A DNA stretch of 17,399 bases from Promethearchaeota archaeon (GCA_048941265.1 JBHLNT010000080.1:1-17399), one strand, 5' to 3'. Positions 1 to 17,399 are shown, counted from the stretch's first letter. Notes: generated by a model from the sequence alone, not told the origin. Numbers and translations: made by a program.

Positions 1-159
1 GCTTTTGCTGCACATGAGCGTATAGAAGAAGCAAAAGAGACAACTGCTGAGGCAATTGTTTCATGTTGTCCTTTCTGTTTAAATCAATTTAAAGCAAATA
101 TTAAAAATAACGAAATCCAAGCTCTTGATCTTTCAGAAATAGTTCAGAAAATAATTTAA
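1..159 (+). CDS. 3' end of a CCG-domain Fe-S oxidoreductase (HdrD/GlpC-like), partial
   Basis: Manual translation of frame 1 gives AFAAHERIEEAKETTAEAIVSCCPFCLNQFKANIKNNEIQALDLSEIVQKII*, with TAA at 157-159. The R-I-E-E-A...A-I-V-S-x-C-P-F-C...DL-x-E-I pattern is the typical C-terminus of cysteine-rich CCG domains. Not in the ORF track because the start lies outside the window. Confidence 0.85.
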   Translation, partial: AFAAHERIEEAKETTAEAIVSCCPFCLNQFKANIKNNEIQALDLSEIVQKII

Positions 160-181
160 TGAAAATTTCATATTTACCAAC

Positions 182-191
182 TTTTTTTTTT
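182..191 (+). terminator. Oligo-T tract, possible archaeal-type terminator
   Basis: T10 run starting 23 bp after the TAA at 159. The AT-rich background limits specificity. Confidence 0.4.
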
Positions 192-236
192 ATTTATTAA
201 TTTTTTAATCTATAATTTTTAATAAGTTCATGTTTG

Positions 237-1301
237 ATGAGTGAAAGTATTCAATTTCCTATTATTCATGTAAGTGGAAGCCATTATGACATAGGATTTC
301 AAGTTGGAAGCCAATTCAAAAAGCTTATAGGAAAAGCTATGCTCAAAAGTCCATTTTATATTGGTCTAAAGTTGATGGATTCGATGAAACCGGAATGGTT
401 TAACGAAATACAGACCTTTGCTGATAAATTATATCCACAATACGTCGATGAGATGAAAGGGATCGCAGATGGTGCCAGAATGAAGTACCGCGAAATTGCA
501 ATAGTTAATTTTCGACATTCAATTAAGTTGGAAATTCCCAAAACAGAGTGTTCGACCTTAATATTTAAAGAAGATAATAAAATTATTCTGGGGCATAATG
601 AAGATCACGTACAGACGATAAGAGAATACTCATATATACTATTTGCAAAGTATGAGAAAGGTCCAACCATCTTTACCTATTGTTATCCTGGCTGTCTTCC
701 CGGTAATTCGGTCTCTTTCAGCTCTGATGGTATCATCATGACCGGTAATGCTTTACAAGATCCAGATTTAAAACAAGGTCTTCCAAAAGGATTGTTAGAC
801 CATGCGATGGTAGAAGCAAAAACAATTGATGATGCTGTTAAAATATGCCAGACTTCCGGGAGATCTGGGGGATATAGTTATAATTTAGCATCACAACATG
901 AACAAAAAGCAGTAAATTTAGAAACGACATCTACCAGATCTGGATTAACACTCGTAAATGACAAATATTATCGTACTAATCATTATATCTCAAATGATTT
1001 AAAGGATATTTACACAGATAATGAAACTAACTATCGTTCTTTAGAACGTTATAAAAGGGGAATAGAACTTCTTCCGCAAGTGGAGAAAACCACTGAAGGA
1101 GCGTTCAAAATTTTATCAGATGACAAGGTATTTGTTGCGATGTCTAAAATGACAGATTCCCCATTAGGCGAAGTTTTTGGCGGGACTCATTTCACTTCAA
1201 TGTTTGAAATCTCAAAAAAGGATATTAAACTTCAATTCTATCCTAATATAAAAAATAGAGAGAATTTCATTGAACTAACCTTAAAAGATTTGAAAGTTTA
1301 G
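237..1301 (+). CDS. Peptidase C45 family Ntn-hydrolase / acyl-CoA:6-aminopenicillanic acid acyltransferase-like protein
   Basis: N-terminal GSHYDIGFQVG and P.YVDEMKGIADGA motifs, autoproteolytic nucleophile in E|CST (Cys codon 549-551) and GHNED motif. ATG at 237; the ORF track uses TTG at 234. Confidence 0.85.
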   Translation: MSESIQFPIIHVSGSHYDIGFQVGSQFKKLIGKAMLKSPFYIGLKLMDSMKPEWFNEIQTFADKLYPQYVDEMKGIADGARMKYREIAIVNFRHSIKLEIPKTECSTLIFKEDNKIILGHNEDHVQTIREYSYILFAKYEKGPTIFTYCYPGCLPGNSVSFSSDGIIMTGNALQDPDLKQGLPKGLLDHAMVEAKTIDDAVKICQTSGRSGGYSYNLASQHEQKAVNLETTSTRSGLTLVNDKYYRTNHYISNDLKDIYTDNETNYRSLERYKRGIELLPQVEKTTEGAFKILSDDKVFVAMSKMTDSPLGEVFGGTHFTSMFEISKKDIKLQFYPNIKNRENFIELTLKDLKV

Positions 1302-1338
1302 ATAAAAAAATGAAAAATAGCTGAGTAAATAAAAAAAA

Positions 1339-2121
1339 TTACTGAGATTCGGCTTTCTTTTGCGCTGTTAAAGCAGCTCCTAAAGCACCCATTAGTTGAG
1401 GATCAACTGGTAATTTCTTAGCCTGGACACCTAACTTTTTTTCTAGGAATGCCACAACTCCAATGTTTTTAGCTACTCCCCCAGTTATAGTTAAATCTTC
1501 TTCAAGTCCTACTCTATATACTAAAGACATAATCCTCGAAGCGATAGCATCATGTATTCCAGCTACTATATCTGGAACTTCAACTCCATCAGCCATTAAA
1601 CTTACAACCTCTGTTTCAGCGAACACGCTACATTGGGCTGTTATTTTAGCCTGATTTTTTGATTGAAGTGAAATTGGACCGAGTTCTTCAAGTTTTAACT
1701 CAAGTGTTCTGGCCATGACTTCTAAAAATCTGCCCGTTCCTGCAGCACATTTATCGTTCATTGCAAAATCAAGAATTTTGCCGTCTTTACTAACTTTTAT
1801 AACTTTACAATCTTGACCGCCCACATCAATTATGGTTCGAATTGATGGAATAAAAGAATGGGCTCCCTTGCCATGGCATGATAATTCAGAAATTTCTGAA
1901 TTAGCAAAAGGGATCTTCACCCTTCCATATCCGGTTCCGACAATATACTCTATTTCATCTAAAGTTAAATTAGCATTTTCAAGTGCTTCATCCATCGCAT
2001 TTTTCGCTGTTCTCTCGGGTTTAGGAGTTGTCGGAACGATGCTAGTTGATATGATTTCTCCATTCTTTAATATAACTGCTTTGCCGGTTAAAGAACCGAC
2101 ATCACATCCCGCCACAATCAT
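1339..2121 (-). CDS. ATP-dependent activator of 2-hydroxyacyl-CoA dehydratase (HgdC/HadI-like, BcrAD/BadFG ASKHA ATPase family)
   Basis: Motifs GCDVGSLTGKAV, TGYGR, ELSCHGKGA, IIDVGGQDCK, MNDKCAAGTGRFLE, CSVFAETE and TGGVAKN. Single 260-aa domain. A T8 tract follows the stop on the minus strand (1331-1338). Confidence 0.93.
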   Translation of the reverse strand: MIVAGCDVGSLTGKAVILKNGEIISTSIVPTTPKPERTAKNAMDEALENANLTLDEIEYIVGTGYGRVKIPFANSEISELSCHGKGAHSFIPSIRTIIDVGGQDCKVIKVSKDGKILDFAMNDKCAAGTGRFLEVMARTLELKLEELGPISLQSKNQAKITAQCSVFAETEVVSLMADGVEVPDIVAGIHDAIASRIMSLVYRVGLEEDLTITGGVAKNIGVVAFLEKKLGVQAKKLPVDPQLMGALGAALTAQKKAESQ

Positions 2122-2140
2122 AATTCTCTACAATTTATTT

Positions 2141-2148
2141 ATTTATAA
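2141..2148 (-). promoter_or_regulatory. Putative TATA box for the activator gene (near-leaderless transcript)
   Basis: Minus-strand TTATAAAT begins 27 bp upstream of the ATG at 2121, matching archaeal TATA spacing. Confidence 0.4.
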
Positions 2149-2242
2149 TAAGACTATTGTTTATTTCTTTATATCTTTTTATAATGGAAATGAGAAATAT
2201 TCTACAAATTTGTATTCAATTTGGATTCTCTTTATTGATTAA

Positions 2243-3562
2243 TCATAATACAACTTGAGTTAAAAACTCAGTAATCTTTGATCTGATCTCTTCCGCGGTT
2301 ACTTCTCTTGAGTCATATGGGTCACAGCCAAATACTAGAGAAGGAATTCCTAATTCTTCTCGAACCGCTTCAACAGCTATTCGAGTTATTGAATAGGCAT
2401 GTTTGCAAGCAAACTGCATGGGCATAATAACACAGTCAATTTTATAATCCTTCACATATTTTAGGACAAATTCTGTATAATATTCAGCAGGACCTCTACA
2501 GGTACCAATCATAGAGAAGTCTAATACTCCCATGGCTAGACTTTCATAGCACTTTTCGATTGTTGATACATCATGGGGCAAAACAGGATAATATCCTAAT
2601 ATGTCCATGATAACCACCGCTTGAAATGTTTTTTCTATCCACGGTAAGAGCTCCATATCAAAAAATACATGGGTATAAGGCCACGCAATTCTGATTTTTT
2701 CATCCGGTACTCCAGCTACTCCGTTTTTAACGTTTTCAGCCGCTTGATCACGAATCCATTTAGTTGTTTTTACTGCTTCAGGAGTTCCACTGGAAGTTGC
2801 CATAGTAGCAAAATTAAGATAACCTGTTATACTCGGCATGGGGCAGGGTACATTCTTCAAAAGTTCATTAAATTCAGCTATATATTCACGTGCCTCATTT
2901 GCCAATTTCATAGTTTGCTGGAATTTCTCCTCATCAAGTTTTTGATTTGTTTGTTTTTCTAACCAAGATACTAGCTCTTTGTTTTGTGTAACCATATAAT
3001 CCATGATTTTTTCGTCATAAAACTCATTTGATTGGTCATAAGCCCAGTATGGAATATCCATATTAAAACAAGGTACTTTAATTAATTGTTGAAAGACTTG
3101 ATAACTCATTGCTAAAGCATTACAGGGTGTTGAAGTAAAGAACATCATATCTGGGATAGGGGCAACCCCTTTCGTATAAGCGCCAACTATAGGCCTCTGA
3201 GCATTGCACAATGTTGGAGTGTCGCCATAACCCAGTTCATTTGTAATATCGATATAGGTTTCATTAATGTGAAAAGGGGCCAAAACAACACTAAAACTTT
3301 CTTGCATAATGGGAGCTAAGTTCATAGCAAAGAATAGCGCAGGTTCATAGTTGAATGGATACATAATAACGGGTTTTCCTTCCTTTCGTGCTTCTGGTAT
3401 TCTCACAAACATATTAAGAAACATTTCCATAAATGGATTAAATTCTTCTTCATTTTTAATCAAAGTAAGAATCGAATTATACATAGTCTTCCAAAGAGAT
3501 AAATCCTTTCCCCAACTTCCTCTTCCAAGCTTTCTATATTTATTGTATATTTCCTCGTCCAT
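2243..3562 (-). CDS. 2-hydroxyacyl-CoA dehydratase alpha-type subunit (HgdA/HadB/BcrB family), paralog A1
   Basis: Three candidate [4Fe-4S] ligands (TLCNAQR, TPCN, FACKH), Glu in MQE and EKIRIAW. ATG at 3562 lies 5 nt after GAGGTGA; the ORF track starts at GTG 3571, inside that SD. Confidence 0.88.
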   Translation of the reverse strand: MDEEIYNKYRKLGRGSWGKDLSLWKTMYNSILTLIKNEEEFNPFMEMFLNMFVRIPEARKEGKPVIMYPFNYEPALFFAMNLAPIMQESFSVVLAPFHINETYIDITNELGYGDTPTLCNAQRPIVGAYTKGVAPIPDMMFFTSTPCNALAMSYQVFQQLIKVPCFNMDIPYWAYDQSNEFYDEKIMDYMVTQNKELVSWLEKQTNQKLDEEKFQQTMKLANEAREYIAEFNELLKNVPCPMPSITGYLNFATMATSSGTPEAVKTTKWIRDQAAENVKNGVAGVPDEKIRIAWPYTHVFFDMELLPWIEKTFQAVVIMDILGYYPVLPHDVSTIEKCYESLAMGVLDFSMIGTCRGPAEYYTEFVLKYVKDYKIDCVIMPMQFACKHAYSITRIAVEAVREELGIPSLVFGCDPYDSREVTAEEIRSKITEFLTQVVL

Positions 3563-3598
3563 TCTTCTCACCTCTTTTTAAATATTTCCATAAAAGTA

Positions 3599-3632
3599 TG
3601 TACTCGAGCAGAGTACAAGCACATTTTATAAA
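3599..3632 (-). promoter_or_regulatory. Putative internal promoter for A1: TATA box plus palindromic operator
   Basis: Minus strand reads TAA(stop of A2)-AGTAAG-TTTATAAA (3632-3625), followed by the inverted repeat TGTACTC-N5-GAGTACA (3599-3617). Confidence 0.55.
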
Positions 3633-3638
3633 CTTACT

Positions 3639-4964
3639 TTACATTACTACTTGAGTTAAAAACTCTGAAATTCTCTCTCTTATAGTTTCAGATGAAACCT
3701 CTCTTGAATCATACGGATCACATCCAAATATTAAAGTGGGAATTCCCAATTGTTCTCGAACTGCTTCAGCAGCCACACGGGTTATGGCATAGGCATGCTT
3801 ACAAGCAAATTGCATTGGAATTATGACAGCATCAATCTTATATTCCTTGACATAATTTAATACAAAATCTACATAGAATTCAACAGGGCCTCTGCAAGTT
3901 CCGACCATAGAGAAATCTAAAGCTCCTAAAGCTAAGCTTTCATAGCATTTTTCGATTGTAGATACATCATGGGGCATAACAGGGTAATATCCTAATAAGT
4001 CCATGATTACAACTGCCTGAAATGTTTCTTCTATCCACGGTAAGAGATCCTGATCAAAAAATACATGGGTATAGGGCCAGGCAATTCTGATTTTTTCATC
4101 CGGTACTCCTGCCACCCCATTCTTAACATTTGCAGCTGCTTCATCGCGAATATATTTGGTGACTTTAACAGCATCGTGAGTTCCTCCCCGAGTTACCATG
4201 GTAATATAGTTTCCAAAACCCGTTATACTTGGCACAGGGCAGGGTACATTCTTTAGAAGTTCATTAAATTCTACTACATTTTCCCGTGCCTCATTTACCA
4301 ATCTCATAGTCTGTTGGAATTTCTCTGAATCTAACGTTTGGTTAGTTTGCTTTTCTATCCAAGAAATTAGGTCCTTAGTTTGTTGGACCATATATTCCAT
4401 CGTTCTCTCATCATAAAATTCATTAACTTTATCATAAGCCCAATATGGGATATCCAAATTGAAAGTTGGAACATCGATTAATTGCTGATATACTTGGTAA
4501 GTCATTGCAATAGCATTGCAGGGTGTAGAAGTAAAGAAAAGAAGGTTCGGAACAGGTGCGGCTCCTTGCATATGAGCACCGATTAAAGGTCTTTGAGCAT
4601 TGCATAATGTTGGTGTGTCACCATAGCCTATTTCATTTGTAATATCGATATACGGTTCATTAAAATGGAATGGGGCCAAACCTACACTAAATACCTCTTG
4701 CATCAGGGGAGCTAAATTCATGGCATAAAATACCTCCGGACCATAATTGAACGGATGCATTATAATGGGCCTGCCCTCTTTTCGGGCATTTGGTAATTCT
4801 AAAAACATATTTAGCATCATCTCAACGAAAGGAGTATAATCTTCTTCTTTAAATTGATTTAAAAAGCCCATATACATCGTTTTCCAAAGAGATAAATCCT
4901 TACCCCAACCACCTCTTCCCAATTTCTTATATTTCTGGAAAGTTTCTACGTCCAATAGTTTCAC
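3639..4964 (-). CDS. 2-hydroxyacyl-CoA dehydratase alpha-type subunit, paralog A2
   Basis: Same motifs as A1 (LCNAQR, PCN, ACKH). The GTG at 4964 overlaps the TGA of the beta gene (GTGA). Alternative start TTG at 4955, 5 nt after AGGTGA. Confidence 0.88.
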   Translation of the reverse strand: MKLLDVETFQKYKKLGRGGWGKDLSLWKTMYMGFLNQFKEEDYTPFVEMMLNMFLELPNARKEGRPIIMHPFNYGPEVFYAMNLAPLMQEVFSVGLAPFHFNEPYIDITNEIGYGDTPTLCNAQRPLIGAHMQGAAPVPNLLFFTSTPCNAIAMTYQVYQQLIDVPTFNLDIPYWAYDKVNEFYDERTMEYMVQQTKDLISWIEKQTNQTLDSEKFQQTMRLVNEARENVVEFNELLKNVPCPVPSITGFGNYITMVTRGGTHDAVKVTKYIRDEAAANVKNGVAGVPDEKIRIAWPYTHVFFDQDLLPWIEETFQAVVIMDLLGYYPVMPHDVSTIEKCYESLALGALDFSMVGTCRGPVEFYVDFVLNYVKEYKIDAVIIPMQFACKHAYAITRVAAEAVREQLGIPTLIFGCDPYDSREVSSETIRERISEFLTQVVM

Positions 4965-6088
4965 CTAGCTTCCAAAATTTCCATAAAAGTTTGGACTCGG
5001 GTTTTCATAGCTCCCGCTCCGCTCAACACGTATTCTCTTTCTAATTCAAGATATGGGATACCCTCTTCCTTTAATTTATTACGGAGTAAAAAAATTTCGG
5101 CCCACCAAAGAATACAGAATTTCATTCTTTGAAAAATAATCCCATCAACATTAAATTCTTTAATGAGCTTCATCATGAACTCTTCTCTTTCGGGATATTT
5201 CCCTGTCATACGAGGACAAGATATTTTTGAAAGGTATCGCTCTTCAATTGCATCAATAGGATTTTTATTTTCATCAATTAAATCCCAAAAATATCTCGTT
5301 CCAAGACATTGCGAGTCGGTTACAACTAATCCCCCTAGATCTTCTATGATTTTCATATAATCAGGTTCATCAAGCATACTTCCTATAATCATTATCCTTG
5401 CTCTATAATCAGATATGCCCTCTTTTTCTTTAAGCTCTTGAAGTTGTTGGGCCAAAAGGTCATTAAATTGATCTCTTGGCATGGATATTCCTGCAGAAAT
5501 AATATTTAATACTTCGGTCCCGGTAATAGGAGGATTATCGAGTTTTCTAAGTTCGTAGAGTTCTTTAAGTAGTGTTCGGGATTTATTATAAACTTTTATA
5601 GCATTTTTAAGCTTATCATCGGAAATAATAACGTCAAAATTCTTTTCTAAGTTTTCCTTAAATTTGGTAATTTCATGACCGAACCATTCATGTGTAGTTT
5701 CACTAACACAACCAGGAACTCCCATGATATAATGATAAGGAAAGGGAGCCTTGTATCTTATGTTGTCATAAAGACGTCGAATTTGGTCACAGCTATTGCA
5801 GGAAACTATACCGTCAAGAAAGTCATATTGATGTTGATTTGCTAACTCTAAACAACATCTGGTATAGCTACATGATGTTGGAGTCATATATGCATCACCC
5901 ATAGGAGTATCACCTGCGGCACACGTTCTAGCCCTCACTCTCACGGGTAAAATATCAGCAGCATAGATAATTTCTTCAGGGATATAGGTACAAAAATATC
6001 CCAAAACCTTTTTTCCCTCATTTTTCCAGCTTTCAATCCAAGGATTTGCAAGCGGAAGAGCTTGAGAGATTTTTTCCATAACAGTCAT
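4961..6088 (-). CDS. 2-hydroxyacyl-CoA dehydratase beta-type subunit (HgdB/HadC/BcrC family)
   Basis: Motifs GKKVLGYFCTYIPEEIIYAA, SCSY, NSCDQIRR, GGLVVTD..C.GTRYF, MKFC and KTRVQTFME. ATG at 6088 chosen; TTG at 6094 and a downstream ATG are alternatives. Confidence 0.9.
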   Translation of the reverse strand: MTVMEKISQALPLANPWIESWKNEGKKVLGYFCTYIPEEIIYAADILPVRVRARTCAAGDTPMGDAYMTPTSCSYTRCCLELANQHQYDFLDGIVSCNSCDQIRRLYDNIRYKAPFPYHYIMGVPGCVSETTHEWFGHEITKFKENLEKNFDVIISDDKLKNAIKVYNKSRTLLKELYELRKLDNPPITGTEVLNIISAGISMPRDQFNDLLAQQLQELKEKEGISDYRARIMIIGSMLDEPDYMKIIEDLGGLVVTDSQCLGTRYFWDLIDENKNPIDAIEERYLSKISCPRMTGKYPEREEFMMKLIKEFNVDGIIFQRMKFCILWWAEIFLLRNKLKEEGIPYLELEREYVLSGAGAMKTRVQTFMEILEAR

Positions 6089-6282
6089 ATACAATTCTCT
6101 TTTCTAATTTACGTATGAATCCAAATCATCTTCATATTTTAGAATTCATTGGACTCTTTTATGTTTGGAATATTAATAATTATTTATACCATTTGACTTT
6201 AAATAAATATCTATTATACTATTTTGGAAAAAATTCTTAAAAAGATAAAATAGATAGGTTGTTAGTTCAATATGAATTGGTA

Positions 6283-7608
6283 TTATAACACAACTTGAGT
6301 TAAAAATTCCTCAATTTTTGACCTAATTGTTTCTGAAGGTACATCCCTCGCGTCGTAAGGATCACAGCCAAATAATAGAGTTGGAATCCCCGTTTCTTCT
6401 CGAACTGCTTCCAAAGCGACTCTTGCTATGGAGAATGCGTGTTTACACGCAAATTGACATGGGAGAATCACACAATCTAACTTATACTCTTTAACGTAAT
6501 TTATGATATAATCTGTAAGATATTCAAGAGGTCCTCTACAGGTACTAATCATTGAATAGTCCAAAGTTCCCATAGCTAAGCTTTCATAACATTTTTCTTC
6601 TGTAGAAATATCGTGGGGTAAAACTTGATAATATCCTAATATATCCATAATAATAGAAGCTTTAAACTTCTGCTCTAACCATGGAAATAATTCTGCATCG
6701 AAGAAGATATGTGTATACGGCCATCCAATCCTGATTTTCTCATTAGGTATCCCAGCGATCCCATTTTTTACATTTTCCGCAGCTAGGTCACGCAAATATT
6801 TAGTACACTTTACTGCATCTTCAGTGCCTCCACGTAGCGTCATAATAAAAAAATTTAGACCTGTTCTCATGCTTTCTAAAGGACATGGCACTGTCTTTAG
6901 AAGTTCATTGAATTCTAAAATATATTCTCTTGCCTCATTTACCAATTTCAATGTTTTATGTAATTTTTCAAACTCCAGTTTTTGTTGAGTTTTCGTTTCC
7001 AGCCATTTTACTAAATCTTTTGTTTGATTAGCCATGTAATCAATTGTTTTTTCATCATAAAACTCACTGACTTGGTCGTACGCCCAATATGGGACGTCCA
7101 TCGAGAAGGTGGGAACTCCAGTTAAATTTTGAAATACTTGATAGGTCATAGCGAGAGAATTACAAGGTGTTGAGAGAAAGAATAAGTAGTCTGGCACTGG
7201 AGCTGCACCCTGTAAATAGGACCCGATTAATGGCCTTTGGGCATTACAAAGAGTAGGATTATCTCCATAACCTATTTGATTAGTAAAATCAAGATAGGGT
7301 TGATTGAGTTGAGCTGGAGCTAAGCCTACGCTAAAAACTTCCTGCATTAGCGGAATTAGATTCATAGCATAGAATAATTGGGGTTCATAGTTAAAAGGGT
7401 ACATAATAATAGGAGTATCATTACTCCGAGCTCGGGGAATGCTAAGGAAAACATCCAATAACATTTCTGCGATTGGTGTAAACTCTTCATCCTTCAAGTT
7501 ATTGATAGCCCCCATATATAACATTTTCCATAATCTAAGGTCTTTACCCCAGTTTCCCCTTCCAAGTTTTTTATATTTATTAAAAAGTTCAATATCCAGC
7601 TTTTTCAC
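6283..7608 (-). CDS. 2-hydroxyacyl-CoA dehydratase alpha-type subunit, paralog A3
   Basis: Same three Cys motifs and colinear with A1/A2. Start is GTG at 7608 or CTG at 7599 (5 nt after AGGTGA). Confidence 0.88.
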   Translation of the reverse strand: MKKLDIELFNKYKKLGRGNWGKDLRLWKMLYMGAINNLKDEEFTPIAEMLLDVFLSIPRARSNDTPIIMYPFNYEPQLFYAMNLIPLMQEVFSVGLAPAQLNQPYLDFTNQIGYGDNPTLCNAQRPLIGSYLQGAAPVPDYLFFLSTPCNSLAMTYQVFQNLTGVPTFSMDVPYWAYDQVSEFYDEKTIDYMANQTKDLVKWLETKTQQKLEFEKLHKTLKLVNEAREYILEFNELLKTVPCPLESMRTGLNFFIMTLRGGTEDAVKCTKYLRDLAAENVKNGIAGIPNEKIRIGWPYTHIFFDAELFPWLEQKFKASIIMDILGYYQVLPHDISTEEKCYESLAMGTLDYSMISTCRGPLEYLTDYIINYVKEYKLDCVILPCQFACKHAFSIARVALEAVREETGIPTLLFGCDPYDARDVPSETIRSKIEEFLTQVVL

Positions 7609-7696
7609 CTAAAACATATTAAGGATTGGATCTACTTAAAATCTTGAAGTTAAGTATCTATTGGGATTTATTTCCTTAAAAATCTGATGTTAATTT

Positions 7697-7728
7697 AAAA
7701 AAAATGGTTATAAGGATTTGAAGATCCT
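7697..7728 (-). terminator. Possible terminator after the relic gene end and paralog A4
   Basis: Minus strand has a short inverted repeat AGGAT-N6-ATCCT (7713-7728) followed by a T8 tract (7704-7697). Confidence 0.35.
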
Positions 7729-7743
7729 AGTTTATTCCTTATC

Positions 7744-7785
7744 TTACATTACAACTTGAGTTAGAAAGTCGGAAATTTTACCCTT
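7744..7785 (-). pseudogene. Relic 3' end of a further alpha-subunit paralog
   Basis: Minus strand AAG GGT AAA ATT TCC GAC TTT CTA ACT CAA GTT GTA ATG TAA = KGKISDFLTQVVM*. Compare the paralog C-termini RSKITEFLTQVVL, RERISEFLTQVVM, RSKIEEFLTQVVL and RGQISEFLTQIVL. It has no start of its own and is out of frame with A4. Confidence 0.85.
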
Positions 7786-7802
7786 TCTATTCCGAAATAA
7801 TT

Positions 7803-9137
7803 TTAGAGAACAATTTGAGTTAAAAATTCGGAGATTTGCCCCCTGATCGCTTCTGAAGTGACTTCTCGGGAATCATAAGAGTCACATCCAAAAATTAAGG
7901 TTGGTATTCCTATTTCTTCTTTTATAGCTTCCGAAGCTACCTGTGCCATGGCAAAAACATGTTTACAAGCAAAGTGTACGGGGAATATTACAGCATCTAT
8001 CTTATAATCTTTCATATAATTTACTAGGTAATCAATATAGTATTCTATTGGTCCTCTTAGCGTACCAACCATTGATGCATCCAACATTCCCTTAGCTAAA
8101 CTTTGAAAACAGTTATCAGTGGTAGATACATCATGGGGAAGTACCTTATAATGACCTAGAAGGTCCATTATGACTACAGCGTTATATGTCTGTTCCATCC
8201 AAGGAAGTAGTTCTTGATCGAAAAAAACGTGAGTATAAGGCCATGCAATTCTTATTTTTTCATTCGGGACACCAGCTATACCGTTTTTTACATTCTGAGC
8301 GGCAGTATCACGAAACCATTTAGTTGTATTGACTGCTTCAGTGCTTCCACCACGGGTCACCATAGTAAAAAAGCTTCCTAAAAATCCAGCTTGGCTTGGC
8401 ATCGGGCAGGGTACATTTTTTAGGAGTTCGTTGAATTCCAATACATTTTCCCGGGCTTGATTAACCATACCCATTGTGTGCATAAATCTTTCTTCATCAA
8501 ATTCATGCTTTGTCTTATTCTCTAACCATGCAATCAGATTTTTTGATTGATTAATAATATAGTCTATGGTTTTCTCATCAAAATACTCATTTTCTTGATT
8601 ATAAGCCCAATAGGGGATATCTACGTAAAAAGATGGGATATTCGCGAGATTTTGCATAACTTGGTAAGACATTGTGAGAGAATTGCAAGGTGCAGTTGAA
8701 TACACGAGATAATCAGGGATAGGTGCTGCACCCTGTAACATCAGCGAAACGAAAGGTCTCTGGGCATTACAAAGAGTAGGATTGTCACCGTATCCCACTT
8801 GTTTTGCATAATCAATATAAGGTTCATTTAAGTGAAAGGGTGCCAATCCAACACTAATTACTTCCTGCATCAACGGTGTCAAATTCATCGCAAAAATTAA
8901 TGCAGGTTCATAGTTAAAAGGATGCATAACAATAGGATTTTCTTCCTTTCGCGCTTTGGGAATACTTAAAAAAATATCCAAGAACATTTCAATTACAGGA
9001 TTAAAATCTTGTTCTTTTGAAGCGTTGAGGAAAGCGTTATACATGGTCTTCCATATTTTTAAATCTTTCCCCCAACTTCCTCGGCCCTTTTTCTTATATT
9101 CATCAAATAATTCTTTATCCAACCTTTTCAACTCCAT
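7803..9137 (-). CDS. 2-hydroxyacyl-CoA dehydratase alpha-type subunit, paralog A4
   Basis: LCNAQR, APCN and FACKH motifs; colinear with A1-A3. Start is ATG at 9137 or TTG at 9122 (5 nt after GGAGTTGA). Confidence 0.88.
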   Translation of the reverse strand: MELKRLDKELFDEYKKKGRGSWGKDLKIWKTMYNAFLNASKEQDFNPVIEMFLDIFLSIPKARKEENPIVMHPFNYEPALIFAMNLTPLMQEVISVGLAPFHLNEPYIDYAKQVGYGDNPTLCNAQRPFVSLMLQGAAPIPDYLVYSTAPCNSLTMSYQVMQNLANIPSFYVDIPYWAYNQENEYFDEKTIDYIINQSKNLIAWLENKTKHEFDEERFMHTMGMVNQARENVLEFNELLKNVPCPMPSQAGFLGSFFTMVTRGGSTEAVNTTKWFRDTAAQNVKNGIAGVPNEKIRIAWPYTHVFFDQELLPWMEQTYNAVVIMDLLGHYKVLPHDVSTTDNCFQSLAKGMLDASMVGTLRGPIEYYIDYLVNYMKDYKIDAVIFPVHFACKHVFAMAQVASEAIKEEIGIPTLIFGCDSYDSREVTSEAIRGQISEFLTQIVL

Positions 9138-9332
9138 TTAAACCGAATAATAACTATTTAGGCTTTCAAATTTAAAAAGCTATCTATGATTAGATATTAA
9201 AGATTTTTAGAAGCTCATAATATCTTGTTTTATATAGAAAAAATAAAATAGAGATCGTTAATTTATAAAGAAACATTATACTGATCAACAAAGAAACTTA
9301 CATAAAAAGTATATTAAATAAAAGTGAAAAAA

Positions 9333-10115
9333 ATGGATTGGGGAATGAATAATCGATTATCGAGGATAATCAAGCCTAAATCTGGAAAATGTGTAATGTT
9401 AGCTATTGATCATGGATATTTTGGAAATATTCCTGGGCAATTAAAATGTTTTGGAGATTTAAATCCATTATTTCAATATGCAGATGCGCTAATGCTAACA
9501 CGAGGTATGTTAAGAAGCTGTGTTTCTCCCGGCTTAGATATACCAATTGTACTTAGAGTTTCAGCAGGAGCTAGCATGCTGAAAGAACTCTCAAATGAAG
9601 AGATTAACGTCACGATAGAGGATGCGATTAGACTAAATGTATCTGCTATAACATGTTCCATTTTTGTAGGGGGAGAATATGAAAAGCAGAGTTTAATGAA
9701 TTTATCTAAATTAGTCAACTGGGGACAAGAATATGGTATTCCTACTTTAGCGGTTACGGCCGTTGGAAGAGAAATGGTAAGAGATGATCGCTATCTTGGA
9801 ATGGCTAGTCGTATGGCAGCTGAAATGGGAGCAACATTCGTTAAAACTTATTATTGCGAAAACTTTGAAAACGTTACTAGTATTTGTCCAGTACCAATAG
9901 TGATTGCTGGAGGGAAAAAAGTAGAGGAAAGAGATGCCTTACAGATGGCAAAGGATGCGGTTGATAAAGGCGCCGTAGGTGTCGATATGGGGCGGAATAT
10001 CTTTCAAAGCGACAGTCCTATTGGGATGATACAAGCCGTCAGAGCAATAGTTCATGAAAATGCAACTGTGGATGAGGCTTTTGAGATTTATCGAAATGGT
10101 CCAAAAGGACTATAA
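9333..10115 (+). CDS. lsrF: LsrF-like 3-hydroxy-5-phosphonooxypentane-2,4-dione thiolase (DhnA-type class I aldolase fold)
   Basis: MDWGM.NRLSRI..PK.GK.VMLA.DHGYF, ELSNE, R.AAEMGA...KTYY (Schiff-base Lys), CPVPIVIAGGKK and GVDMGRNIFQSD closely follow E. coli LsrF as I recall it. ATG at 9333 lies 5 nt after AGTGA; the ORF track uses GTG at 9324. Confidence 0.9.
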   Translation: MDWGMNNRLSRIIKPKSGKCVMLAIDHGYFGNIPGQLKCFGDLNPLFQYADALMLTRGMLRSCVSPGLDIPIVLRVSAGASMLKELSNEEINVTIEDAIRLNVSAITCSIFVGGEYEKQSLMNLSKLVNWGQEYGIPTLAVTAVGREMVRDDRYLGMASRMAAEMGATFVKTYYCENFENVTSICPVPIVIAGGKKVEERDALQMAKDAVDKGAVGVDMGRNIFQSDSPIGMIQAVRAIVHENATVDEAFEIYRNGPKGL

Positions 10116-12556: not shown

Positions 12557-13195
12557 ATGACGGAAAAAGACAACGATAATAAAATAAAGGATATCGTTGA
12601 TTCTTTCGAAGTTGCAATGAAAAAAGGATTCATGAGTGGATTAATTTTATTGGTACTGCAGAATGAACCGTGTCATGGTTATAAGATTTTGAAAGAAATT
12701 GAAAAACGCACTTTAGGAGTTTGGCAGCCAAGTTCATCAAACATTTATCCATTATTAGAATCATTAAGCGAAAAAGGTCTTATTGAATGTGTTGAGATGG
12801 ATGGCGCTGGACGCCAAAAGAAAGTATATGCGATTACCTCCAAAGGAGAAAATGCTATAAAAATCTTAATCCAAAAACATTCCATGATGGTCGATTCAAT
12901 AAGATCAATAATCTTATCCACGTTAGGGATTACAGATGTGCATGATCCGTCATTTTTAGAAGATTTGGAGAAATTAATTTCTTATCCAGGAATGGAATTG
13001 ATAATGAAAGATTCCATTGATTCCAAAGTGGAAATCTTAAAATATAACAAAGAATTGATAAAACAACGAATCAAAATTATGAACAAGAATCTCCAAATCA
13101 TCGAAAATTTTCTTTCAAAACTCGAAAGTGAGAAAAAAAATGAAAATATTAATCAAAAACCACAACAAATTGCTAGCCATCAATCACAAAAATAA
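12557..13195 (+). CDS. PadR-family transcriptional regulator
   Basis: Winged-helix pattern KKGFMSGLILLVLQNEPCHGYKILKEI...PSSSNIYPLLESLSEKGLI...GRQKKVYAITSKG, plus a helical/coiled-coil-like C-terminus. Confidence 0.9.
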   Translation: MTEKDNDNKIKDIVDSFEVAMKKGFMSGLILLVLQNEPCHGYKILKEIEKRTLGVWQPSSSNIYPLLESLSEKGLIECVEMDGAGRQKKVYAITSKGENAIKILIQKHSMMVDSIRSIILSTLGITDVHDPSFLEDLEKLISYPGMELIMKDSIDSKVEILKYNKELIKQRIKIMNKNLQIIENFLSKLESEKKNENINQKPQQIASHQSQK

Positions 13196-13210
13196 TTCGG
13201 AGATACTAAA

Positions 13211-16200
13211 ATGGGAGTTATATTAAAGTTAGCAATAAGGAATATGAAACGGCGTAAAGCAAGATATATTCTTACTTCTCTTACCCTTGTAATAGGAGTT
13301 GCGTTATTTGGTGGTATTTTAATTGCAAACGATTCCTTTCAAGTAACATTTGTAAATGATATTGATAGACGTATGGGTACAGCTGATATTCTTCTTCGTG
13401 ATACTGAAAATGCGGACGGTTGGTTTAATCCCAACGATTTAAAAGATGTTAAAGATTTGGATCACGTTACAGATATTGCATATCGAATTTCAGGATTTAA
13501 TATACAAGTAACTGCCGTAGAAGGAGGCTCACTAGACGACAATAGTACTTCATCAGCCATATATGGAATTGATCCTGATTCAAAAGGTGAGCAACATTTA
13601 GGTGGTCCTCCTACAATATTAGATTCTAAGGTCGATGGAAATAGTTTGGAGGATTTGCTAAAGGATGCTTCTTCCGATGAAATCGTAATAACAGAATCAT
13701 TAAAAATAAAATTAGGTAAGGATTTTGAAGCTGGGGATACAATTTATATTTTCCCAATTGATTATGAAAAAACCTTTCCAACAGGCGAACAAGAATTAGT
13801 CAAAACGGATTCAAGTTTATGGCCAAAATATAAAGTACTTGCTATAATTCGAGATAATGGTGAAGCACGTGATTTTGATCCTGACACACCTGAACAATTC
13901 TCATCGCCTTCTCGAGGGCCTTGTATTTTTACAACCCTTGGTACTGCACACGATCTTGTTGATGGACTAAACGATTATGATGATAAAGTCACACTTGCTG
14001 CGATTGGAGTAGATGATCTCAATTTAATTAAGGATGTTATTAAGGAAATTGACCATGATCTTGACAATGACAAATGGGTTGCTGCTGATCTTAAATCTGA
14101 TAGCGTTGATCAAATTAATAGTTCTATGACAATGCTGAGGACAATGTTTTTGATGTTTGCTCTCGTAGCTTTAATATTATCGATTATTCTTATTATGAAC
14201 ATTTTCAATATAATCAAGGAAGAACAGGAATATGAAACGGGAATGCTTCAAGCAATTGGATCGTCGAAATCTGAGACATTTAAGATGTTTTTATATCAAG
14301 GAATAATAATGGGGATAATAGGAGCAATAATAGGAACAATTGGTTCTTATTTCATGTCATATTTCATTTTTTGGTTGACAATAGAGTCTCTAAGAAATCT
14401 TCCAGGAGGAGTCGGTGAATACTTTCAAGGCTTTGAATTTGGTATTGTATTATATCCACAAACTATAATTGTTACGTTAGCAGTAGGAATTATCTCTTGC
14501 ATATTAGCTTCTATATATCCAAGCTGGAAAGCGAGTCGTAAGCCAATAATAGAGTGTTTAAATCCCCTTGCTCAAAAAGCCGAACGCGAAAAAAAGCATT
14601 TTAAAAGAAAAATATTAGTAGGTATAATGGCATTGTTGCTTATAGCAATTGGGTCATACCTTTTGTTTACTCTTTCCCGTTTTGGACCCGAAAGATCCGA
14701 AGAAGCTTCTACCATATCAATGATTGCGCCAACCATGATCCTATTGGGTATTATTGGGCTTATGAATCTCTTTGTAAGTCCGCTTACAAGAGTGTTCGTT
14801 AAAATTTTCTCCCCATACCTTAAACATACAACATTATTAACTGGAAAAAATGTTTTAAGACATAGAAAGAGAACAGTTCTCACATTTTCAATGATATCGT
14901 TAACGACGAGTTATCTTATCGGTCTGAGTGTTTTTTTGGGTTCCATAGAAGCTGGAGTACAAACAACAGTAAATGATGTAATGGGTTGCGATGTACGAAT
15001 CATTTGTTATGGTACACCATTAGAATTTGGAAACAAATTAGAAGATCGGAAAGGTGTTGATGAGGTTATGGGAGTAACCTACGAAAATATTCAAATATGG
15101 GATGGGCATAAATGGGTCGGACATCGTCAATTAGAAAAAGAATGGGATGTTTCTATCACTGCGAATGTTGTAGAGCCAAAAATGATGAAAAAGCATATGA
15201 ATGAAACCGTTGTTTTAGATCCTAGCAGTAAGCCTTTTGAAAAGCTGATAACTGACTTATCCGATGAGAATACTGTAATGATTCCTAAAGAAACTGCTGA
15301 CAAGTTTGATTTAAAAAAAGGAGATACAGTATTGGTTCGATTTTCCCTCGGAGTTGATTATCCTTCGGCAACAGCACTTAGAGATCATGATGTAGACAAT
15401 GCTGTTGAAATTACATGCAATGTTAAATTAAAAGTTATCGCAATCGTTGATGATGTTCAAGGGTTTGGTTTTTCAAACCTTATAGGACAAGATGTTGAAA
15501 GCTATAGTATTTTTATTTCATGGAACACATGGGATTCTATATCTCTTAATAATTTGAATGGTGGTGGAACCGATCTTATGTTTAGACATAAGTCTCAATC
15601 AGGAGAGCCCGGTATTGATAATTTTCAATCTAAATGGTTCAATTTCTCTGAAGTTATCGGTGCTATAGAAAATGTCTCTAATATCGACTATTACACTACA
15701 AGGATGGATTATTTCAGTCCTACTTATGGGGCTGAAGTACTTTTCAATCCTTTTGATCCTGCGATAAATTTTGAATCTTCAGTTGTAGGGATAAGAACTA
15801 ATTCAAGTGGAAAATTAGTTGATGATTCATATTTTGGTCAAAACACACTAATTGACAAGTCTGATGAGTATTCAGGTTCAACTATGGAACAACTACTAAA
15901 TAATACTAAAATGGTATGTGTAGTGGATGAAAGTTATGCTAATCTTATGAAAGAGAGTGATTCATCATTTGGTATCGGTTCGAATATTACTATTTTCCCT
16001 CAAGAATTTCAATCTATGCAATATCAGATTTTTGCAAATAGTCTCTATACAAGTGTTACAACCACAAATGGTTCTAGTACAGGTCTAGTAGATTTCTTAA
16101 CTCTTCCCGCACCAATAGAACCGAATAACATGACTTTTACTAGCAATAAAACATCAATGGAAGTCATTATAGATTTCGATATGACATATTTTATGACACA

Positions 16201-17399
16201 TTATATAAATCCACATAATATTTCTATTACTTCTTTTCTCAATGCCTCAGTGGACAACCTTGAATTAGATGTATTAAATTATTATACTGGAAAGTACGAT
16301 AAGTTAGGTGATCTTAATAATACTGACTATTTACCCTACGATTTTGAATTTAATCAAGAAATGCCAGCATTTTCTTATATAAATTTATCGAATTTCATAA
16401 TGAGATTAAGAATAAAAGGCTATAATTCAACTTATGGATCAGACTATAGATTAGACCTTGATTATTTGAACCTTTTAGTAGACAATTCAACATATACTTT
16501 ATATGCACCTTCATGGCCTAAATATCAAGTGATAGGGATAATCAAAGACCCATCATTAGCCAAATCTGAAAGAGCTTTTTGGAGTTCTGCATCTGAGAGA
16601 TATTACGATGTTGAGCAAACAACCAATACTGTGTATATCAATTATGAGAACGCTAGAAATTATGTATATCTTATGAATCGAGGTTCATTACCTAATGGTA
16701 CTTACGATAAAATTACTTCAGTTCTCATCCATAGTAATAGTATTGAAGATATAAATAGCGTACATACCCAATTAAAACAAGAGCTTAATAATGTTGAAGC
16801 AAATGTTTGGACTGTTCTTGATTTAAAAACTCAAACTTTAGAAAGCAGAAGATACGCCTTTGATTGGTATATCTGGATTAAAAATGGTTATGACGACGAG
16901 CAAGTTTTGGAAGATTTAACTCAATACATACAAGATCAAGGATATCTTGTTTTATTTGGATTTACCAGATCATTTGTCGAAGATATGTTCACTGGTATGA
17001 TAAATCTCATAACAATGATCACTACTGGAGTCTTAACCTTTGCTATAATTATCGCTATGATTGGATTAGCCTTGCATAGCCTTCTTTCTACAATGTCTCG
17101 GAGAAGAGAAATCGGAATGCTTAGATCAATTGGACTAAATAAAAAAGGGGTAATTAGGACTGTTTCTGGAGAAACGATCATCATATCACTACTTGGTGCT
17201 GCTATTGGCATTCTAGCAGGGCTTTTACAGGGTTTTCTTATGGTATCTGCTGTTCCTGACACGGGACTACTTACAGTAACATTTACAATACCCTGGCTTA
17301 CAATTGGTATATTAGTGGGGGTCACCATTGCAACTGCGATTATTAGTTCTCGATATCCTTCCAGATGGGCAGCAAATATAAACATCATTGATGCAGTTA
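13211..17399 (+). CDS. Very large FtsX/MacB-type ABC transporter permease, 3' end just outside the window
   Basis: Manual translation from ATG 13211 is open for 1396 codons to the window end. It begins MGVILKLAIRNMKRRKARYILTSLTLVIGVALF, has a first FtsX block (EYETGMLQAIGSSK...YPSWKASR), a second start-like segment (KNVLRHRKRTVLTFSMISL) and a second FtsX block (RRREIGMLRSIGLNK...YPSRWAANINIIDAV). It starts 15 bp after the padR stop. Missed by the ORF track because it has no stop in the window. Confidence 0.93.
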   Translation, partial: MGVILKLAIRNMKRRKARYILTSLTLVIGVALFGGILIANDSFQVTFVNDIDRRMGTADILLRDTENADGWFNPNDLKDVKDLDHVTDIAYRISGFNIQVTAVEGGSLDDNSTSSAIYGIDPDSKGEQHLGGPPTILDSKVDGNSLEDLLKDASSDEIVITESLKIKLGKDFEAGDTIYIFPIDYEKTFPTGEQELVKTDSSLWPKYKVLAIIRDNGEARDFDPDTPEQFSSPSRGPCIFTTLGTAHDLVDGLNDYDDKVTLAAIGVDDLNLIKDVIKEIDHDLDNDKWVAADLKSDSVDQINSSMTMLRTMFLMFALVALILSIILIMNIFNIIKEEQEYETGMLQAIGSSKSETFKMFLYQGIIMGIIGAIIGTIGSYFMSYFIFWLTIESLRNLPGGVGEYFQGFEFGIVLYPQTIIVTLAVGIISCILASIYPSWKASRKPIIECLNPLAQKAEREKKHFKRKILVGIMALLLIAIGSYLLFTLSRFGPERSEEASTISMIAPTMILLGIIGLMNLFVSPLTRVFVKIFSPYLKHTTLLTGKNVLRHRKRTVLTFSMISLTTSYLIGLSVFLGSIEAGVQTTVNDVMGCDVRIICYGTPLEFGNKLEDRKGVDEVMGVTYENIQIWDGHKWVGHRQLEKEWDVSITANVVEPKMMKKHMNETVVLDPSSKPFEKLITDLSDENTVMIPKETADKFDLKKGDTVLVRFSLGVDYPSATALRDHDVDNAVEITCNVKLKVIAIVDDVQGFGFSNLIGQDVESYSIFISWNTWDSISLNNLNGGGTDLMFRHKSQSGEPGIDNFQSKWFNFSEVIGAIENVSNIDYYTTRMDYFSPTYGAEVLFNPFDPAINFESSVVGIRTNSSGKLVDDSYFGQNTLIDKSDEYSGSTMEQLLNNTKMVCVVDESYANLMKESDSSFGIGSNITIFPQEFQSMQYQIFANSLYTSVTTTNGSSTGLVDFLTLPAPIEPNNMTFTSNKTSMEVIIDFDMTYFMTHYINPHNISITSFLNASVDNLELDVLNYYTGKYDKLGDLNNTDYLPYDFEFNQEMPAFSYINLSNFIMRLRIKGYNSTYGSDYRLDLDYLNLLVDNSTYTLYAPSWPKYQVIGIIKDPSLAKSERAFWSSASERYYDVEQTTNTVYINYENARNYVYLMNRGSLPNGTYDKITSVLIHSNSIEDINSVHTQLKQELNNVEANVWTVLDLKTQTLESRRYAFDWYIWIKNGYDDEQVLEDLTQYIQDQGYLVLFGFTRSFVEDMFTGMINLITMITTGVLTFAIIIAMIGLALHSLLSTMSRRREIGMLRSIGLNKKGVIRTVSGETIIISLLGAAIGILAGLLQGFLMVSAVPDTGLLTVTFTIPWLTIGILVGVTIATAIISSRYPSRWAANINIIDAV

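Follow-up and report, generated by a model that had tools for sequence, protein, structure and literature searches.

We describe a cluster of six genes at positions 1,339 to 9,137 of a 17,399-bp contig (C4) from a Promethearchaeota archaeon (GCA_048941265.1 JBHLNT010000080.1:1-17399); this entire contig is the window of our analysis. The cluster combines four paralogous genes for catalytic α-subunits (A1 to A4) of the benzoyl-CoA reductase/2-hydroxyacyl-CoA dehydratase (BCR/HAD) family with one gene for an accessory β-subunit (B) and one activase gene. The best reading of this arrangement, to which we give about an even chance, is that the α-subunits are shared-β isoenzymes, with B serving at least two of them. 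That B serves all four, each acting on a distinct substrate, appears less probable than this.

An earlier note on this DNA had reported four intact, colinear α genes of about 440 codons with one β gene and one HgdC-type activator gene, and open reading frame (ORF) calling returned exactly these: six intact genes, all on the minus strand, in the order A4, A3, B, A2, A1, activase. The features of the window that bear on the argument are the following.

7803-9137, minus strand: A4, 444 aa, catalytic (HadB/BzdO-like) subunit paralog; PF06050 163.8 bits
7738-7777, minus strand: orphan 3′ end of an α gene (last ~11 codons plus stop) in the A4-A3 spacer; repeat family D6, tblastn
6283-7608, minus strand: A3, 441 aa, catalytic subunit paralog; PF06050 156.5 bits
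4961-6094, minus strand: B, 377 aa, sole BzdN-like subunit of the locus; PF06050 334 bits
3639-4964, minus strand: A2, 441 aa, catalytic subunit paralog; PF06050 165.7 bits
3572-3608, minus strand: remnant of a B 3′ end (~12 codons plus AGGTGA stop/start overlap) directly before A1; DNA alignment, repeat family D4, tblastn
2243-3571, minus strand: A1, 442 aa, catalytic subunit paralog; PF06050 167.8 bits
1339-2121, minus strand: activase, 260 aa, HgdC/HadI-type ATPase; TIGR00241 273 bits (cut-off 125)
1-156, plus strand: 3′ end of a CCG/Fer4 iron-sulfur subunit gene, truncated by the contig end; tblastn 96% over 52 aa

From the ORF coordinates, the stop of B and the start of A2 overlap by 4 nt, and A2 appears to be the α translationally coupled to B, with no other α of the window so coupled. 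The spacers after A4 (194 nt) and A3 (188 nt) are both AT-rich and contain T5-T8 runs; the A2/A1 spacer measures 67 nt, and the stretch past the activase carries T8, T5 and T7 runs. Archaeal transcription often terminates at oligo-T tracts. Because long AT-rich spacers and oligo-T runs follow the stops of A4 and A3, the layout suggests three transcription units: A4 alone, A3 alone, and B-A2-A1-activase together.

The window belongs to a draft genome of 5.0 Mb in 361 contigs, with a completeness of 91% and a contamination of 4.8%. An assembly chimera as the cause of the 4:1:1 layout was ruled out, because contigs from public runs of several samples and two studies bridge every gene junction. 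In run X1 of study P1, which is possibly the source sample, record 1 spans 1-4268 and record 3 spans 5961-8557. Two independent assemblies add further contigs: X2, also of study P1 (record 11, 3070-5975; record 12, 5948-6531; record 13, 6614-9862), and X3, of the second study, P2 (record 20, 3267-4285, across the A1/A2 junction; record 22, 7315-7859, across the A3/A4 junction). Homologues in the protein database match in length (438-442 aa), and the metagenome-assembled genomes from which nearly all of the closest protein relatives and related loci derive carry the labels Promethearchaeota, Hodarchaeota, Helarchaeota or Hermodarchaeota (Asgard archaea).

The surplus of α genes recurs among relatives. 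We obtained 22 related loci from a scan of species-representative genomes and annotated them by blastp against the six proteins of the window; several of these loci are cut by contig ends, and the counts are lower bounds. The plain arrangement of B followed by one α, and then usually by an activase gene, was found in 12 of the 22; α genes outnumber β genes in nine (L002, L003, L004, L006, L007, L012, L015, L017 and L019), and in one (L016) an α stands beside a fragment of B only. The order A4-type, B, A2-type, activase is repeated in L004, L007, L012, L015 and L017. Layouts with two α genes behind one B (B-A-A′) also occur in more distant subfamilies, namely on contig C258 of the same genome, in a second cluster of L019 and in L021, and both α-subunits of each of these pairs keep the three Cys. 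Judging from these loci, α excess appears to be a recurring trait of these Asgard clusters, with the window as its extreme; the 4:1:1 ratio that the earlier note singled out is real, and it stands at the top of this recurring excess and not as an isolated design. Two of the related loci have particular layouts. The 21-kb locus L003 reads, over its whole length, A4-type, B′, A′, B, A1-type, that is, three α and two β genes; no activase gene lies within it, and its activase must therefore be encoded elsewhere and shared. In L016 (8895-11933), whose record bears the label Thermoplasmatales, all that comes after an A4-clade α (72% identical) is an N-terminal piece of B of 83 residues; the copy may be decaying or have been transferred, or the record may be wrongly binned.

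Across these genomes B is found coupled to different types of α. An A2-type α lies directly behind B in the window and in L002, with the 4-nt overlap; an A1-type α follows B with a 10-nt gap in L001 and L003; an A4-type α lies behind B and overlaps it in L006; and the α-subunits nearest to A3 are coupled to B in L005. In the closest relatives, orthologues of B that are 87-89% identical precede an A2-type α in some genomes and an A1-type in others; those coupled to A4-type or near-A3 α-subunits are more distant. Because B orthologues precede different α types in different genomes, B would seem to pair with whichever α is present, and to be shared where there are several. Comparative genomics thus favours the shared β and activator chassis that the earlier note had proposed.

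Gene counts within the genome point the same way. A PF06050 profile search gave 12 matches above the cut-off: the five of the window, a B-A pair on contig C24, a B-A-A′ set on C258 accompanied by an activase gene of its own and by a short-chain dehydrogenase/reductase (SDR) gene, and two genes that contig ends truncate (C323, C359). Relative to B, the other β-subunits show identities of 37% (C24), 26% (C258) and 27% (C323 fragment); the one on C24 has an adjoining α of its own and the one on C258 has two, and the remaining α-subunits of the genome are at most 27% identical to A1-A4. A second close B was not found by this search in the 361 contigs of the 91%-complete genome, a result we word as "not found" rather than "absent" because the genome is incomplete. 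Among 41 related genomes (own included), six hold α-subunits of the subfamily at E <= 1e-60, in 4 (own), 3, 2, 2, 1 and 1 copies, and across those six the close β-subunits number 1, 2, 2, 1, 1 and 1. In an even sample of the phylum the subfamily occurs in 9 of 301 genomes at E <= 1e-120, and none exceeds the four α-subunits of the window, although five candidates per genome were scored and copy numbers are possibly undercounted.

We modelled the complex of B with A3, the α that has the least genomic support. Three runs gave an interaction prediction score from aligned errors (ipSAE) of 0.92, whereas the best of three controls gave 0.00; 58 of 80 solved complexes reach the mark applied, as do 2 of 110 mismatched pairs. 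At least 96% of the contacts are common to the runs, and the predicted local distance difference test (pLDDT) of the partner is at least 90. In the model, loops and helices around the cluster ligands form the interface on both sides, and nine A3 residues that take part in the lowest-error contacts (Y114, T119, N150, M154, Q157, V158, D171, Y191 and Q195) are identical in all paralogs.

The history of the α genes is consistent with long retention of several copies. A maximum-likelihood tree of 44 α-subunits (careful search; support given as ultrafast bootstrap/SH-aLRT) places A4 in a nine-row clade with 100/100 support. Members of this clade lie directly upstream of B in L003, L004, L007, L012, L015 and L017; the others are the L006 α, directly downstream of B, and the L016 α, upstream of the B fragment. 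The A4 clade is old and conserved. A1 and A2 fall in a six-row clade (100/98) confined to the closest relatives, A1 as sister to the α of L001 (98/96) and A2 as sister to the B-coupled α of L002 (100/98). A3 forms an unresolved single branch, its nearest relatives (71%) being α-subunits of L005 and L006, and no orthologue of it was found among the sampled loci. The ratio of nonsynonymous to synonymous substitution rates (dN/dS) was 0.09-0.15 in all 14 comparisons with an estimable dS (A4, 0.10-0.12 to its clade members; A3, 0.09-0.14; A2, 0.085; A1, 0.11-0.15), and all four genes have therefore been maintained by purifying selection. Between the paralogs, synonymous sites are near or at saturation.

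Remnants in the spacers record part of this history. The last ~37 nt of the A2-A1 spacer align with the 3′ end of B, AGGTGA stop/start overlap included; the remnant matches B residues 366-375 by tblastn with 70% identity (E 0.023), and DNA alignment with the junction between the end of B and the start of A2 identified the same B 3′-end remnant in L002. In L001 and L003 the B that stands 10 nt ahead of the A1-type α is intact and 87-88% identical to the window B. Because the spacer holds only a 3′-end remnant, A1 has lost, or never had, a B of its own, yet purifying selection has acted on it since the split of the window and L002 lineages (dN/dS 0.13). Repeat family D6 includes the orphan α 3′ end in the A4-A3 spacer as its fifth member. 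This orphan shares 85% identity with the 3′ end of A2 and matches A2 residues 431-441 (tblastn 82% identity, E 0.003 in a tiny database); it is the scar of an earlier duplication or deletion. No remnants of B or activase were found by tblastn (E up to 10) in the A3-B spacer, in the A1-activase spacer or upstream of A4. Two side observations concern such junctions. In L006, at 1767-1868, two α genes enclose the first 34 codons of an activase gene (85% identical), a scar left when an α-activase unit was duplicated in tandem. Where the A2-A1 spacer meets the B remnant, at 3609-3625 (minus strand), lies a 6-bp inverted repeat (GTACTC, 5-nt loop, GAGTAC) that is conserved in L002 at about 2930-2950; it could mark a junction formed by recombination, or else act as a hairpin in the RNA and affect expression of A1.

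Subunit B best matches the models for BzdN, HadC, BcrC and the double-cubane proteins, and phmmer aligns it with BzdN (8s02_B) over residues 19-375 (E 1.6e-48). It has Cys at all six BzdN ligand positions, Cys36/73/100/263/293/327, which in BzdN ligate an [8Fe-9S] double cubane (PMC11971306), and the six ligand Cys are invariant or at least 90% conserved across 27 β-subunits. B is accordingly predicted to carry an [8Fe-9S] double cubane. The cluster of HadC is of the [4Fe-5S] type and is held by three Cys (PMC11971306, PMC7317905); B, with all six Cys of the BzdN/DCCP double cubane, is not HadC-like, which corrects the earlier note, where HadBC is among the systems taken as known examples. The cluster of BzdN has been suggested to accumulate at least two electrons (PMC11971306).

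All four α-subunits match PF06050 (HGD-D) with 156-168 bits (cut-off 28.4), their best model matches are HadB, BzdO and BcrB, and their pairwise identities are 61-74%. In its alignment with HadB, a profile of A1-A4 covers residues 46-434; the alignment with BzdO falls into two blocks. In A1 numbering, C122, C150 and C389 align with the three [4Fe-4S] ligand positions of HadB, C150 and C389 also with BzdO Cys128 and Cys380, and E91 of the MQE motif with the HadB Glu. Not one of these four residues varies among the 40 aligned family members, and the three Cys and Glu are those expected of a catalytic subunit whose [4Fe-4S] cluster has one open iron. This is in agreement with the statement of the earlier note that the three Cys and the MQE glutamate are kept in all four paralogs. 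The position of BzdO His131 is occupied by Leu, Ile, Leu and Leu in A1, A2, A3 and A4, respectively, and the residue following the third Cys is Lys, as in HadB, where BzdO has Glu. HadB likewise has a non-polar residue at the His131 position, and in BzdO Glu65 and His131 form an acid-base pair beside an aqua ligand (PMC11971306). Of this pair, A1-A4 keep the Glu.

Six sites are fixed differently in the A4 clade and the other 29 α-subunits (G129S, L211F, Q385H, A391V, V402I and P417S). Of these, Q385H and A391V lie on either side of the third Cys ligand. The counterpart of position 391 in BzdO is Leu383, which helps to line the benzoyl pocket around the ring (PMC11971306). Residues 241-255 are among the most variable stretches across the four paralogs and align with BzdO helix 220-234, a CoA-channel helix, which flanks the phosphopantetheine; the N-terminal helices 31-60 are also highly variable. 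The A4-clade substitutions and the variable helix hint at functional divergence of the α-subunits, though as suggestions and not as evidence of different substrates. One may postulate instead that all four α-subunits pair with B and act on the same substrate, as isoenzymes that have different promoters and diverge in nothing but dosage or regulation; the identity of the residues immediately next to the cluster ligands (CNAQRP, PCN, FACKH, MQE and WPYTH in each paralog) and the small number of fixed differences would fit this, yet we consider it unlikely, since the A4 clade stayed separate across several Asgard lineages (100/100), two of the fixed differences flank a cluster ligand and one aligns with a pocket residue, and the synonymous sites of A3 against A2 or A4 are saturated (proportion of synonymous differences, pS, 0.76-0.80), a paralog retention unusually long for pure dosage.

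The activase matches PF01869 with 212 bits and the 'acyl-CoA dehydratase activase' model TIGR00241 at the score listed above; its phmmer matches are MbdQ (E 1.3e-71), HadI (2.8e-70) and HgdC (5.8e-66), and both of its cluster-binding Cys motifs align with those of HadI and MbdQ, in keeping with an ASKHA-type ATPase in which each monomer contributes two Cys to a bridging [4Fe-4S] cluster. There is one such gene at the locus, and three BcrAD_BadFG matches genome-wide lie on three separate contigs.

To our knowledge, characterised BCR/HAD enzymes have all been described as fixed 1:1 pairs of catalytic and accessory subunits. Two precedents are related: a small, unrelated third subunit is part of the Fusobacterium nucleatum dehydratase, and HgdC is able to activate dehydratases of other species. 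Among the closest characterised systems is BzdNO, the catalytic dimer of the class I benzoyl-CoA reductase of Aromatoleum sp. CIB (PDB 8S02; PMC11971306). The window shares with it the gene order, β-like then α-like, the match of B to BzdN with its six Cys, and the match of the α-subunits to BzdO with Cys128 and Cys380 aligned. It differs in having Leu or Ile at BzdO His131, Lys instead of Glu after the third Cys, four α-subunits per β, and one HgdC-like activase gene at the locus in place of the two-gene BzdPQ (BcrAD in the Bcr type). Scores against the Bzd equivalog models are far below their cut-offs (BzdN 175.5 against 453.8, BzdO 54-56 against 448.6, BzdQ 218 against 380). Aryl-CoA reduction of the Bzd type, one of the activities that the earlier note had entertained, is disfavoured by the exchange of His131, the single activase gene and these scores.

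A second comparison is with HadBC/HadI: the α-subunits align with HadB near full length, with its three Cys, its Glu and its Cys-Lys motif, and there is a single activator gene (E 2.8e-70 to HadI). Here, too, there are differences. HadC has a three-Cys [4Fe-5S] cluster and the window B has six Cys (PMC11971306, PMC7317905). Equivalog scores are 45-59 against 750 for HadB and 150.5 against 700 for HadC; HadBC, HgdAB and FldBC have α and β genes at 1:1, as against 4:1 in the window, and the CoA-transferase of the HadBC/HadI system is not in the window locus. The had operon has the α gene before the β gene; in the window B precedes A2. A third point of comparison is the double-cubane protein DCCP with its ATPase partner DCCP-R from Carboxydothermus hydrogenoformans (PDB 6ENO, 7YYL). 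B matches DCCP (E 1.2e-37), the double-cubane model NF040772 is the best NCBIfam match of B (232 bits, below the cut-off of 350), and the ATPase partner is likewise encoded by a single gene; DCCP, however, is a homodimer in which the double cubane is the active site (PMC7317905), whereas B is coupled to a three-Cys α, as is BzdN.

Judged by their sequences, all five HGD-D proteins and the activase fit the BCR/HAD family (PF06050 plus a BcrAD_BadFG ATPase), for which ATP-driven electron transfer and radical catalysis can be proposed by analogy. Within it they form a hybrid system that joins a BzdN-type storage subunit, HadB-like catalytic subunits and an HgdC-type single-gene ATPase. Every Bzd, Had and DCCP equivalog model scores far below its cut-off, and we regard them as an unnamed subfamily that fits neither benzoyl-CoA reductase nor classical dehydratase. 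A limited literature search returned no description of multi-α clusters, or of this subfamily, in Asgard archaea; the passages on these genes in one Asgard study label them Bcr or Hgd and treat bcrABCD clusters, not this arrangement (PMC8163825).

By analogy to HadBC/HadI and BzdNO, the activase homodimer would take up a low-potential electron and ATP hydrolysis would drive this electron into B, which would store it on its predicted [8Fe-9S] double cubane and hand it on to a HadB-like catalytic subunit, docked on the pseudo-twofold face of B, whose [4Fe-4S] cluster would bind the substrate. In the characterised enzymes the reduced activase dimer spans the A-B dimer, and ATP hydrolysis sends the electron first to the accessory cluster and then to the substrate-binding cluster (PMC8473912, PMC7317905, PMC9351452). 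A1-A4 would compete for the one face of B, and up to four alternative A-B heterodimers could therefore form from one B and one activase. What our data show are the gene content, the cluster ligands, conservation, selection and how the arrangement evolved; the binding of each α to B, the electron path and any difference in substrate we infer, as we do the up to four enzymes of different specificity that the earlier note envisaged.

Several observations weigh against B as a shared subunit and call for a cautious interpretation. With a completeness of 91% in 361 contigs and a contamination of 4.8%, a further β could be unassembled, and two HGD-D genes are truncated at contig ends (C323, C359). 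The L003 relative has a second B-A pair between its A4-type α and B, and L001 carries two B-A pairs; these extra pairs show that dedicated β-subunits exist in the genus. The gene counts proposed in the earlier note show no second close B in the own genome and dedicated β-subunits in relatives. The same note had proposed complex prediction with a comparison of interface conservation. The B+A3 complex passed, but since the homologous complexes HadBC, BzdNO and MbdNO have been solved, this may reflect likeness to solved complexes, and such a model does not discriminate between cognate and non-cognate paralogs. Taken together, the positions of the modelled interface (24 of 42 identical in the four paralogs) show no significantly better conservation than the remaining positions of the protein (186 of 399; Fisher p = 0.20). 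In the model A and B dock through homologous segments that surround the cluster-ligand loops and helices, and on structural grounds dimers of the type A-A or A-A′ are therefore conceivable. Finally, no CoA-transferase gene lies in the locus; two PF02515 (family III) genes are on other contigs.

In one alternative, only A2 uses B; the other α-subunits would work without it, either as A-A or A-A′ dimers to which the activase passes electrons directly or with the distant β-subunits of C24 or C258. Translational coupling of A2 alone to B would fit this scenario, as would the conceivable α-α pairing and the homodimeric nature of DCCP, the presumed ancestor (PMC7317905). We think it quite improbable, however, as every α type lies directly behind a B orthologue in some relative, all seven A4-clade members in other loci adjoin B (the degenerate L016 aside), and the genome's other β-subunits are 26-37% identical to B, each with adjoining α-subunits of its own. 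We also know of no α-only enzyme in the BCR/HAD family.

A further alternative would be an obligate multi-α complex, in which an A4-type and an A2-type α join B in a larger assembly (an A4-B-A2 trimer or a mixed tetramer) instead of alternating on it. The order A4-type, B, A2-type is kept in at least five other loci and B-A-A′ recurs in three more distant subfamilies; nevertheless, the plain 1:1 B-A of the same subfamily in 12 of the 22 loci indicates that one α suffices, and the modelled interface takes up the one pseudo-twofold face of B, which is also the face used in the solved heterodimers, with no second docking face on B known to us, and we regard such a complex as very unlikely. That the α excess is only apparent, with close β-subunits in the unassembled part of the genome or with a contig foreign to the bin, is hardly probable despite the incompleteness, contamination and fragmentation of the assembly and the window being an entire 17.4-kb contig, for the local 4:1:1 is bridged in several samples and two studies, the B remnant before A1 shows that B is missing in cis, and relatives with longer contigs show 2:1:1 and 3:1:1.

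The conserved neighbours of the cluster offer some guidance as to the substrate. A GlcD-like FAD subunit gene is found in 15 of the 22 loci and a CCG/Fer4 subunit gene (TfrB/HdrD/GlcF-like) in 16, convergent with the activase. The first 156 nt of the window (plus strand) are the last 52 codons of such a CCG gene, matching the CCG protein of L002, and the first 77 nt of the window exactly overlap the end of reverse-complemented contig C155 (locus L023 1-5402). Since there are two FAD+CCG pairs in tandem on C155 and a third close pair on C202, the dehydrogenase module beside the cluster is multiplied like the α-subunits; more generally, CCG and GlcD-like FAD genes are highly multiplied in the genome, tblastn with one pair matching about 20 contigs. 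The domains of the pair are those of D-2-hydroxyacid dehydrogenases, for instance YdiJ (a weak NCBIfam match), and both the GlcD-like and the TfrB/HdrD-like subunits score below NCBIfam cut-offs. An arginase-family gene and a radical SAM/SPASM gene each occur in 9 loci, the former without an NCBIfam match and the latter below every cut-off. The conserved neighbours in the 22 loci thus indicate no specific substrate by NCBIfam. With a GlcD-like FAD dehydrogenase and an HdrD/GlcF-like CCG subunit as conserved neighbours, our best guess is a CoA thioester from 2-hydroxy or 2-oxo acid metabolism. A stoichiometric reductase is a live alternative to dehydration by analogy, because the six-Cys double cubane of BzdN has been suggested to hold at least two electrons (PMC11971306).

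The window's own neighbours of the cluster, namely a C45 hydrolase, an LsrF-like aldolase, a metallo-β-lactamase (MBL)-fold protein, a Zn-dehydrogenase, and a PadR regulator with a permease, recur in at most three loci. Between the CCG gene and the activase lies a gene for a C45-family autoproteolytic acyltransferase/hydrolase (234-1301, plus strand; NF040521, 175 bits, cut-off 85); in related loci the CCG gene and the activase are direct neighbours, without it. Divergent from A4 is a DhnA/LsrF-type aldolase gene (9324-10115, plus strand), not conserved beside the cluster elsewhere, which passes the 3-hydroxy-5-phosphonooxypentane-2,4-dione thiolase equivalog (393.7 bits against 297), unexpected in an archaeon. 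At 12557-17398 (plus strand) a PadR-family regulator gene is followed by an FtsX/MacB-type duplicated permease (ADOP-like) of more than 1396 aa that runs off the contig.

Beyond a shared β, one may tentatively picture a plug-in platform, a possibility that we would not put higher than roughly one in three: a double-cubane B and an ATPase would act as a hub for interchangeable, separately transcribed α-subunits, and the substrate range could grow by duplication of catalytic genes alone. Because a BzdN-type [8Fe-9S] cluster would here be joined with HadB-like active sites lacking the reductase His, such a platform might even support a third chemistry, the ATP-driven reduction of non-aromatic substrates.

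If one accessory subunit does serve several catalytic subunits, this would be a new organisational principle for very low-potential radical enzymes, and it would widen the substrate range cheaply, as the eight-iron storage subunit and the ATPase would need no duplication. The Asgard archaea are the closest archaeal relatives of eukaryotes. The finding would also bear on how their genomes are annotated. Metabolic reconstructions of Asgard archaea take the labels "benzoyl-CoA reductase" and "HgdAB" at face value, for instance as aromatic degradation (PMC8163825). If our reading is correct, these annotations would have to be read differently, as the subfamily of the window fits neither definition.

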